Assembly (NCBI GenBank): GCA_951406725.2
Contig: OX597821.1
Coordinates: 68,262,001-68,326,000, forward strand
DNA from: Octopus vulgaris
Lineage: Eukaryota
DNA length: 64,000 nt
Reading direction: 5' to 3'
The notes below the pieces were generated by a model. The model saw nothing but the letters and a program-made list of their open reading frames with translations. It was not told the origin of the DNA and searched no databases. Shown here piece by piece: positions 12,323 to 39,305 of the stretch; position 1 is the first letter of the stretch; each line of letters starts with the position of its first letter. A program made the translations under genes and the position numbers.

Positions 12323-12622
12323 TAAAATGTTTTTTTGAATTGTAAAGCAATGCACTATAATACAAATAGTAGGCTACATACCTATTGTAATTTAGTCATC
12401 CATAGTATGATAATATTTCGAAATAAAATTCCTTCTTCATATATTCTTGGATGGAGTCGCTGCTATAATCGGTTTTCCCACAAGCGACTCCATCTAAGAA
12501 TATCTGAAGAAGGAATTTCATTTCGAAATATTATCATACTATGGATGACTAAATTACAACAGGTATATAGCCCACTATTTGTATTATAGTGCATTGTTGT
12601 ACCATTCAAAACTTTTTATTCT
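12322..12622. repeat. ~140-bp inverted repeat with a degenerate HHR in each arm, between (TA)n tracts
   Basis: About 12325-12461 is the reverse complement of about 12483-12620, roughly 90% identical by eye. The right arm reads CTGAAGA-a-ggaat/atttc-GAAA-tatta-TC-atac at 12500-12539. Confidence 0.85.
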
Positions 12623-27402: not shown

Positions 27403-27872
27403 TGTTAATGACTAAGAAAGAGCGTAAGCAAGTAGGCAGATGGTAAAGCAGGGAGAGGGTATGGGGTGAAGTTCATAAAGAAAAAGTGGTTGAGAGCAAG
27501 ACAAGATTGGAGCGCCAATAAATTGGATGCTTTCTTGAGGAGAGCAAAACTTTCCGTCGTAAAAAAAACTGAAGCCAAGTGGTTTACTTTAGTTGTGAAT
27601 GTGTGTTTGCGTGAATGAGTATATGTCTGTACAAGCATGTATATTTATGTGTCTATGTGACTGTTTATTAATATGGGTGCATATAGACGTAGGGCCGTGG
27701 CTGTGCGGTAAGTAGCTTGCTTACCAACCACATCGTTCTGGGTTCAGTCCCACTGCGTGGCACCTTGAGCAAGTGTCTTCTACTATGGCCTCGGGACGAC
27801 CAAAGCCTTGTGAGTGGATTTGGTAGACGAAAACTGAAAAGAAGCCTGTCATATATACATATATATATATAC

Positions 27873-28561
27873 ATAGTGACCACTCTCTTATATTTATTTT
27901 GTAAAAATATTATAATATGTTATAAAATATTATAATAATCCAGGTTTCTCGTAGCACTAGGCCACTTGGTGTTGAATAAATATACTATTAAATTAGTATC
28001 TAATTCTCTCACCCTTATTAATTAATTATAATTATGCTGCATTTATTTCTAAATGCTGTATTTGTTTTCCGTGAAAGTTTGGCGCGCTGTTGGTTGGGGC
28101 ATTTGAATTATAACGTCGGATGTAATCAATTGAACCACACGCGTATTTATCGTTATGGTAAAATCTGGCGTGTGATTGAGTGGATTTCATCAAGATAGTC
28201 TTGGCTGACGAGCTACAAATGGATTTTTTTGTAAGTAATATTACATTTAATTCATTAATAGCGAAACAATTGTCCCAAAATAATCTGTATTTTTGTTATT
28301 TTTTATTTGCCCTGTCCGTGTGAGCTAACAGTCGTACTGGCTTTCATGGGAAACATGTATTTTCGTGGTTGAAACCTTTTAGATTAACTGGTGCTAGAGT
28401 GAGCAATATAGTGACCACTCTCTTATATTTATTTTGTAAAAATATTATAATATGTTATAAAATATTATAATAATCCAGGTTTCTCGTAGCACTAGGCCAC
28501 TTGGTGTTGAATAAATATACTATTAAATTAGTATCTAATTCTCTCACCCTTATTAATTAAT

Positions 28562-28565
<4 letters not shown>
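27873..28565 (+). mobile_element. 535-bp-period retrozyme/PLE-like element with identical 158-bp terminal direct repeats
   Basis: 27873-28030 equals 28408-28565 with no mismatch seen. It contains an intact HHR motif and is flanked by (TA)n. Confidence 0.88.
28201..28278 (+). ncRNA. Type I hammerhead ribozyme with extended stem II
   Basis: TTGG-CTGACGA-GCTA...[aatgga/ttcatt; tgtaa/ttaca]...TAGC-GAAA-CAATTG-TC-CCAA. All core nucleotides are canonical and stem III is palindromic. Confidence 0.8.
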
Positions 28566-28617
<52 letters not shown>

Positions 28618-28906
28618 GATGTATTATGTATGTGTGTATGTGTGTGTGTGTATTTGTGTGTCTGTGTTTGTCCTTATCACCATCGCTTGATAACCGATGC
28701 TGGCGTGTTTACGTCCCCGCAACTTAGCGATTCGGCAGATAAAATAAGTACTAGGCTTACGAAGAATAAGTCCTGGGGTTGATTTGTTCGACTAAAGGCG
28801 ATGCTCCAGCACGGCATCAGTCAAATGACTGAAACAAGTAAAAGAATAAAAGAATATATATGTATGTATGTGTGTATGTATGTATGTGTGTATGTATGTA
28901 TGTATG

Positions 28907-34506: not shown

Positions 34507-34507
<1 letters not shown>

Positions 34508-35315
34508 AATAGAAATATTAAAATTACTAAGTCTCTCTAAAAGAGAACAACGGCAGCGTTTCCGGAAAATAATAGTTATCGCCATACTAATATAGCATTC
34601 TTATAAAAATAAGAATAAAGCTGTCCGCTTATTAGCTCCATGAGGCCATCGCCTTAAGTTAGCTATTTGATACACAAACTGTATCCATATAACCTTCGAA
34701 CAAGGGAGGTCAGTCGCTCCACACTACTTGACCGGCAGCTACAGACGCGTTTCGGGGTATTGCCCCTTTTCAATGCAGCGTAGCCAGACCAGTAGGTGTC
34801 GCTTCTAACAATCTCTGTTCGAAGGTTTTATTTACCTAGCTTCGGTGGAATACATCCACTTGTTTTCAATAATAGAAATATTAAAATTACTAAGTCTCTC
34901 TAAAAGAGAACAACGGCAGCGTTTCCGGAAAATAATAGTTATCGCGATACTAATATGGCATTCTTATAAAAATAAGAATAAAGCTGTCCGCTTATTAGCT
35001 CCATGAGGCCATCGCCTTAAGTTAGCTATTTGATACACAAACTGTATCCATATAACCTTCGAACAGAGATTGTCAGAAGCGACACCTACTGGTCTGGCTA
35101 CGCTGCATTGAAAAGGGGCAATACCCCAAAACGCGTCTGTAGCTGCCGGTCAAGTAGTGTGGAGCGACTGACCTCCCTTGTTCGAAGGTTATATGGATAC
35201 AGTTTGTGTATCAAATAGCTAACTTAAGGCGATGGCCTCATGGAGCTAATAAGCGGACAGCTTTATTCTTATTTTTATAAGAATGCCATATTAGTATGGC
35301 GATAACTATTATTTT
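34507..35315. mobile_element. 363-bp-period HHR element in tandem plus inverted arrangement
   Basis: 34507-34702 is repeated at 34870-35065, and 34565-34827 is inverted at 35054-35315. Copies are nearly identical and TA repeats flank both ends. Confidence 0.9.
34738..34779 (-). ncRNA. Minimal type I hammerhead ribozyme, U3-A8 variant
   Basis: Minus strand: GCTGCA-TTGAAAA-GGGG caata CCCC-GAAA-CGCG-TC-TGTAGC. The inverted copy at 35102-35143 (+) has GAAA changed to AAAA. Confidence 0.8.
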
Positions 35316-38715: not shown

Positions 38716-39305
38716 TTAGAGGGAAACCACTATGTGGACACCCTTATGCTAGAAATAGATCCGCTATGGTCTTACCACTAAGAAGTGTTCTCAAGAAAAA
38801 TTTAGCAAAACAACTAAAACGTAATCGAGCAAGACAAAAGAAAAAGCAATAAAAATACGGATTATTCGCATACATGTTTCACTATCAACATATCACGTAA
38901 TTTTACTTACATAAATGTCCGTAGATCATCGATGCGACCGTCCAGATGAATATAATTTGTTGAAAAAAAGCTATAAAAAACCTATTTATTATTACGACAG
39001 AAATTTTTCTTCTGGCCTGGGGAGACAGTCAGAAAGTTGCGGCCTTTTGCAACAACCTACCTTTGCAAACAGGGATTTTCCACTCTAATGAACATAAAAA
39101 CAGAGCAGAGTAATCGAGTGGGTCCTAATGACTGTATCCAAATTGCTCTGGCATCAAAATGTCCCAATTTTGATGTAATTGTAGCAAAAATGAAATGACA
39201 TAATTTCTCCAAAACTTGAAGTAAGAATGTTTCTAGAAAAATCTTTTTGTTTCATAATGAGAATATTGATTTATTTTATTGCATTTGTTTTATACTTTTT
39301 ATATA
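38716..39305 (-). mobile_element. TA-bounded element with an extended-stem-II HHR motif (38866-38937)
   Basis: Minus strand: TCGCA-TCGATGA-tCTA...atgtaa GTAAAA ttacgt...TAGt-GAAA-CATG-TA-TGCGA. Element ends are approximate. Confidence 0.65.

Follow-up and report, generated by a model that had tools for sequence, protein, structure and literature searches.

A 693-base insert at positions 27873-28565 of the window, the 64,000-nucleotide stretch of Octopus vulgaris DNA that was analysed, consists of 1.3 copies of a 535-base non-coding unit. The unit carries a single type I hammerhead motif, and the insert interrupts an older SINE-like repeat at its (TA)n centre. We favour, with moderate confidence, the reading that the insert belongs to a high-copy, non-autonomous family whose movement depends on proteins of Penelope-like elements (PLEs), and that its template was a transcript which exceeded one unit and had not been cut. 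A circular RNA template, a truncated autonomous PLE, a small LTR element and a local duplication are weighed below where the evidence bears on them.

Architecture of the insert and its hammerhead

The two 158-bp ends of the insert (Table 1) are 100% identical at an offset of 535, as an earlier reading of this DNA, made from the letters alone (hereafter the sequence-only reading), had described. The divergence between them is zero, with a 95% upper bound of 1.9%. Microhomologies of three letters on the left and four on the right fit the flanking (TA)n equally well, so that the element-derived redundancy measures 151-158 bp. Any target-site duplication is likewise indistinguishable from the TA/TG repeat itself. 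The GC content of the insert is 30%. No stop-to-stop frame of at least 100 aa overlaps positions 27873-28565, and ATG frames on the circularised 535-nt unit reach 54 aa at most, which confirms the reported absence of an ORF. Among the contigs aligned from four public runs, none spans the whole 693 bp.

Table 1. Positions in the window of the insert, its target, the host repeat and a relative of the unit.
Feature	Position	Strand	Basis and remarks
Left half of SINE-like host repeat	27691..27851	+	15 matches in window, others 72-94% identical
Left (TA)n target remnant	27852..27872	none	Sequence; 21 bp
First 158-bp repeat	27873..28030	+	Exact repeat; would be a 5'-truncated upstream partial unit (pseudo-LTR-like)
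Unique 377-bp part	28031..28407	+	Folds; ~28056-28118 predicted to pair with 28297-28363 in a long rod tipped by the hammerhead and a side hairpin
Type I hammerhead motif	28193..28286	+	Descriptor search; activity predicted only
Second 158-bp repeat	28408..28565	+	Exact repeat; its end would be the reverse transcription start, 291 nt downstream of the predicted cut
Right (TA)n/(TG)n target remnant	28566..28640	none	Sequence; 75 bp
Right half of SINE-like host repeat	28641..28856	+	18 matches in window
Decayed relative of unit	38720..38950	-	nhmmer E 8.7e-07 and alignment; matches ~28187-28430

The insert separates the two halves of the host repeat. The left half bears what we take to be a tRNA-like head with A-box-like and B-box-like motifs, judged by eye against the consensus; ARAGORN found no tRNA gene. 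The right half lies downstream of 12 of the 15 left-half matches in the window. In 8 of the 11 other two-half copies the gap between the halves is just 13-117 nt, mostly TA/TG repeat, compared with 789 nt at the insert locus. The other copies are 66-94% identical to the insert-bearing copy, whereas the 158-bp ends show no difference, which indicates that the insert is younger than the SINE-like repeat. The sequence-only reading had placed the insertion in the (TA)n centre of an older SINE, and its placement and relative age both stand for a repeat that is SINE-like. Insertion into an AT-rich or (TA)n target is as in PLEs. Gaps of 269, 370 and 511 nt were observed as insertions in the TA centre of other SINE-like copies (window 19166-60597), suggesting that insertions may generally land in this centre.

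The hammerhead comprises the core (28205-28211), a helix II of 4 bp (28212-28215 with 28259-28262) and the GAAA element (28263-28266). Helix III is formed by 2 bp with a palindromic tetraloop, the cut is predicted after C28274, and 10 of the 12 register positions of helix I are paired. A 43-nt hairpin insert replaces the small loop beyond helix II. With the strict descriptor, the motif is the sole match in the 64-kb window. No match was obtained in 3000 shuffled 693-mers with this descriptor and two in 2000 with a relaxed one, which excludes chance as the source of the motif. Two family variants each add a helix I pair: 28200 C>T, at 72% of depth in the run X4 and 9% in the run X2, and 28192 A>C, at 76% in X2 and ~100% in X4. 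Rfam gave no match in the window at the gathering score; at E up to 10, 13 weak matches were returned for 27600-28900 and none was a hammerhead. Compared with the canonical hammerhead as described in PMC4209133, the core and helix III agree with the label 'fully canonical' that the motif had been given, but the periphery does not, in view of the 43-nt insert on helix II and the lack of an Rfam hammerhead match. Mussel retrozyme hammerheads, in the account of PMC7229834, also miss most tertiary contacts. A splice-donor-like word (28232-28237) is located in the helix II insert and is kept in the decayed relative at 38720-38950. Introns near hammerheads are described for PLEs (PMC4209133); none of the five joints listed has GT..AG ends, which leaves the word at 28232 unsupported.

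The predicted ground state pairs the hammerhead core with the cut site. The helix that would block the core has a pairing probability of 0.75-0.79, compared with 0.01 for helix III, and the active fold lies ~7 kcal/mol higher. The energy models leave the hammerhead core unscored, so that this blocking fold may be overstated. With one hammerhead, the insert could presumably cut a transcript once, and would not release unit-length RNA or a circle. Copies with two hammerheads were not seen among the aligned contigs, which are too short to reveal arrays. The folding z score of the 535-nt unit is -5.9 in linear form and -6.4 to -6.5 in circular form, and comes mainly from the unique part with its long rod (z -5.4). 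Four of 84 repeat-free controls scored as low as the unique part or lower, and 7 of 14 arbitrary 535-nt stretches of the window reached z -6.0 or lower, probably via TA tracts. By these predictions the unit is well structured, though not uniquely so. Seven of 17 variants fall in predicted pairs, of which six keep the pair and one breaks it; no two-sided compensatory change occurs among the 17, and the variants support the fold weakly.

A young multi-copy family and the ends of its copies

Words of the insert are present in 20 of the 24 public runs listed, at 0.58-0.89 of all its words, across three organisms and ten studies. Four of these 20 runs (X2, X4, X10 and X19), all consisting of assembled contigs, were aligned to the insert. 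X2 and X4 are probable DNA runs; one of them gave 2662 matching contigs, 1338 at 99% identity or more, and the other 1253, with 551 at that level. The summed depth of ~8e4 to 1.5e6 per bin in the probable DNA runs derives from overlapping contigs and hence gives no copy number. Thousands of near-identical contigs nevertheless rule out single-copy DNA and show a young multi-copy family. If single-copy DNA had been duplicated locally in tandem or misassembled, the perfect identity of the ends would be explained, and the lack of an aligned contig across the 693 bp would fit. The abundance of the unit in several organisms refutes this origin for the unit itself, and the SINE-like host repeat is cleanly interrupted. 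We assign this explanation almost no weight, and the single-copy local duplication that the sequence-only reading had named as its own refuter is excluded for the unit.

Four TA-rich loose 3' ends were found among 23 of the 167 loose ends, at 28030 (equivalent to 28565), 28564, 28553 and 28429. Three of the four lie at 28553-28565, within 12 nt of the insert end, and one of the four possibly comes from the same locus. The aligned contigs showed no 5' flank belonging to another copy. The clustering of 3' ends that had been expected is therefore seen, on few contigs. The second 3' end, at ~28429, is 136 nt away from 28565. Such ends bear on the view that the insert is a TRIM or another small LTR element with fixed 158-bp LTRs, which the sequence-only reading had also set up as a refuter and which would readily provide identical direct terminal repeats around a short non-coding core. 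The repeats have neither a TG start nor a CA end, no PBS-like or purine-rich tract was visible beside them by eye, and other copies end at 28429 and 28553, within the would-be LTR. An LTR element of this kind is very unlikely.

Record 9 of X19 spans the join between repeat and unique part, extending 110 letters to one side and 161 to the other, and carries three variants that are absent from the insert. These variants identify the join as a feature of the family. Its presence in another copy indicates that the template exceeded one unit or was circular. A joint leading from 28565 back to 28031 is not among the five joints listed; a contig with such a joint would fit the first repeat too. The same record speaks against the view that the 535 bp are the 5'-truncated pLTR end of an autonomous PLE, to which a template jump or a second priming at this locus only would have added the extra 158 bp. 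Published work on PLEs describes 5'-truncated partial tandems as their usual insertion form and most of their hammerheads as single motifs in truncated copies, which agrees with this view. However, a join shared with a copy that has other variants is not private to the locus, and no loose end at 28031 leads to foreign sequence among 23 of the 167 loose ends. A truncated autonomous PLE is thus an improbable source.

The decayed relative on the opposite strand has a broken hammerhead core and ends in a TG/TA repeat at the position equivalent to ~28429. Loose ends at 28314 in both X2 and X4 resemble this relative, which likely stands for an older subfamily. Immediately ahead of 28281, two contigs in X4 run into other sequence (median length 135 letters), whose letters resemble the 3' half of a different hammerhead, hinting at a sister family that may share the downstream part. 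The loose ends of X2 at 28285 and 28520 have in common a palindromic foreign word, which we take to be a proximity-ligation linker, and were disregarded.

Searches of collections with the hammerhead pattern gave no match in viral contigs and none in metagenome contigs. A looser pattern returned 54 loci, which were judged to be chance matches: the best E value was 0.006, nearly all matched by the pattern only, and the core was found upstream in 0 of 54. No report of an octopod hammerhead element was found in the literature searched; the family may already stand in Repbase or Dfam or in supplements. Recently active Penelope families are reported for Octopus vulgaris (PMC13282606); the word ribozyme is absent from the main text of that study.

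Template and route of insertion

The internal cut site of the insert is intact, which rules out a cleaved linear monomer as template and leaves either uncut RNA exceeding one unit in length or a circle formed by religation. For the first of these, the favoured route through PLE proteins, the scheme starts from what is observed: copies of the family are numerous and young, and the repeat-to-unique join is present in at least one of them besides the insert. A tandem or partial-tandem copy would be transcribed by read-through. By analogy with the Anolis PLE, a PLE protein would then nick AT-rich DNA and start target-primed reverse transcription downstream of the hammerhead. The start would be a fixed internal RNA site, at 28565 in this insert and at ~28429 in some copies. 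The ribozyme would have stayed uncut in that molecule, perhaps aided by the predicted self-blocking fold. Synthesis would have passed the ribozyme into the next upstream unit and ended after 693 nt at the 3-nt microhomology.

The biochemistry described in PMC11167929 is compatible with this route. In vitro, a PLE reverse transcriptase starts on AT-rich nicks at internal RNA sites that lie downstream of the hammerhead, and hammerhead cleavage is not needed; for the Anolis PLE, uncut RNA is the dominant substrate and no reads are described as ending at the cut site. The Anolis PLE route on a linear tandem transcript gives the same 1.3-mer, and the 1.3-mer is therefore not specific to a circle. 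The proposal of the sequence-only reading, in which reverse transcription ran round a circle or jumped templates, is upheld insofar as a young, retroposed, multi-copy hammerhead unit is found. Its use of the 1.3-mer as a mark of a circle does not hold, and the evidence speaks against a template jump confined to this locus.

A second hammerhead element in the window has a layout that bears on the machinery. At 34507-35315, 6 kb from the insert, TA tracts flank an element made up, in this order, of a full 363-bp non-coding unit unrelated to the 535-nt one, a 196-bp partial tandem (99%) and a 266-bp inverted truncated copy (98.5%). The element has a minus-strand minimal hammerhead with a U3-A8 core at 34773 and a predicted cut after 34744, which was matched by 0 of 2000 shuffles; the GAAA is altered in the inverted copy. 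A hammerhead variant with the U3-A8 core and a layout of partial tandem plus inverted truncated copy are each described for PLEs in published accounts. This layout suggests that short hammerhead units in this genome are likely placed into (TA)n by PLE machinery. A partial tandem with an inversion is not expected from simple rolling round a circle. Hammerhead-like cores with helix II and GAAA, in which helix I was not found, were also observed at 12504, 14753 and 44669; these are possibly decayed minimal hammerheads of PLEs.

Several observations count against the PLE-transcript reading. Pfam was searched with 110 of the 130 non-repetitive frames in the window (from 300 frames of at least 70 aa) and gave no reverse transcriptase or GIY-YIG match; three weak matches all fell below the curated cut-offs. 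No autonomous PLE partner is thus found among these 110 frames. The helix III is of the canonical type seen in circle-forming invertebrate retrozymes, and this feature and the strong self-pairing suit a circle. The 3' ends stand 136 nt apart, compared with the 30-40 nt of the PLE 'tail', and the count of 3' ends comes from four contigs, one of which may be the insert locus.

These points lead to the second template, a 535-nt circle in the same family and with the same PLE helper. A copy with at least two hammerheads would be cut, a host ligase would close the product, and reverse transcription would proceed for 1.3 rounds. We regard this as possible though less probable. Published northern blots detect circles from repeats of coral, mussel and axolotl whose type I hammerheads are similar, and a cDNA longer than the unit is part of the published retrozyme model (PMC7229834, PMC7761336). 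In circular form, the unit has a favourable predicted fold (z -6.4). Both repeats carry the same allele at the family-variable positions 27952/28487 and 27979/28514, as would be expected from one template molecule, and six contigs of X19, overlapping by 28-30, together cover the unit in a closed ring. However, these observations also fit a tandem transcript, and a 1.3-mer transcript gives the same X19 graph. No copy with two hammerheads is seen in the aligned contigs, and one of nine retrozyme dimers was cleaved in the Xenopus test described in bioRxiv 10.64898/2026.07.22.740005. Editing-like changes on both strands, set out below, suggest passive read-through by the host and not a dominant plus-strand circle. 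Passage through a circular RNA is possible, but the 1.3-mer alone gives no pointer to it.

The runs X10 and X19 are RNA only by our guess, and none of the listed runs with insert words is recorded as RNA. In X10, 45 A>G and 19 T>C differences occur among 74 places, several of them clustered in single contigs. In X4, which has the same organism label as X10, 9 A>G and no T>C occur among 17 places, and X2 has 5 A>G and no T>C among 15 (Fisher p for X10 against X4 and X2, 0.004 and 6e-5). At 21 editing-like sites, drawn from 40 of 82 entries, a G is never found upstream, compared with a background of ~13%. Depletion of the upstream G is described as an ADAR signature, and hyper-editing as commonest in repeats (PMC5625713). 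ADAR editing of RNA from both strands of the family is the likely cause of the X10 changes. X19 shows no such excess (5 A>G and no T>C of 12 places). Changes on both strands fit read-through within host transcripts and say nothing for a circle.

In the DNA runs, the family variants on the plus strand favour A>G over T>C by 9:0 in X4 and 5:0 in X2, with naive p values of 4e-4 and 0.014 that count repeat sites twice and take the change as unpolarised. An editing imprint is one possibility for this bias, and selection for a G-U-tolerant fold yields the same bias. The fuller scheme, in which the family makes a 535-nt circular RNA with an unusual, long-armed hammerhead, ADAR edits this RNA and the circle serves as template for new genomic copies, so that the edits become heritable as DNA variants, seems doubtful to us. 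If the bias among DNA copies were an editing imprint, RNA edits would have been written back into the genome. If the fuller scheme were true, the variable overshoot lengths of dispersed copies would form a genome-wide record of rolling reverse transcription.

Comparison with retrozymes and Penelope-like elements

Whether retrozymes move through circles, and which enzyme moves them, are questions for which this family provides test material; its young dispersed copies and near-fixed 3' end suit it to that test. Non-LTR retrozymes are tied to PLE pseudo-LTRs in bioRxiv 10.64898/2026.07.22.740005, which gives consensus lengths of 51-972 bp. The 535-nt unit falls within this range, which corrects the sequence-only reading that it is longer than animal retrozymes. 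Among the retrozyme traits, the unit has the intact type I core, a short, non-coding, low-GC sequence lacking LTR, PBS and PPT, and many copies, but not the canonical loop 1/loop 2 periphery.

As metazoan non-LTR retrozymes are described (PMC7229834; bioRxiv 10.64898/2026.07.22.740005), the insert shares with them a non-coding, self-paired unit of low GC content (under 50%) that bears a single type I hammerhead, in which a palindromic tetraloop closes a helix III of 2 bp, as well as the lack of LTR, PBS and PPT, and a length in range; dispersed monomer-type copies are known there too. It differs from them in the 43-nt insert of helix II, in its (TA)n site without a visible target duplication and in a hammerhead whose cleavage is predicted only. 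By the test of the 2026 preprint, which asks for two consecutive units, the insert is unlike active retrozymes, being a 1.3-mer with one hammerhead.

The PLE hallmarks described in PMC8557442 and PMC4209133 are partial tandems, (TA)n or AT-rich targets, and hammerheads in the terminal repeats. Compared with PLE pseudo-LTRs, such as those of Poseidon in Anolis carolinensis (PMC11167929; PMC8557442), the insert likewise has a partial tandem that gives a direct terminal repeat, a hammerhead upstream of the 3' end, an AT-rich/(TA)n target and, across its family, more than one 3' end. In contrast, its hammerhead is not included in the duplicated part and differs from the minimal PLE type, and the distance from cut to end is 291 nt, compared with ~85-92 nt in the Anolis PLE as computed from the positions in PMC11167929. 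Unlike autonomous PLEs, the insert has no reverse transcriptase or GIY-YIG ORF. Short units that form pLTRs are also described for the non-autonomous Chlamys PLEs (MRC1, Chlamydomonas, PMC8557442), and elements of the MRC1 type were formerly taken for LTR elements. The Chlamys PLEs, compared here by description only, differ in being green-algal, mostly without canonical hammerheads, and in using (CA)n or (C)n targets. On sequence grounds, the Octopus element would work like a non-LTR retrozyme, and as a young and very abundant hammerhead-bearing mini-element it would be an addition to that known class.
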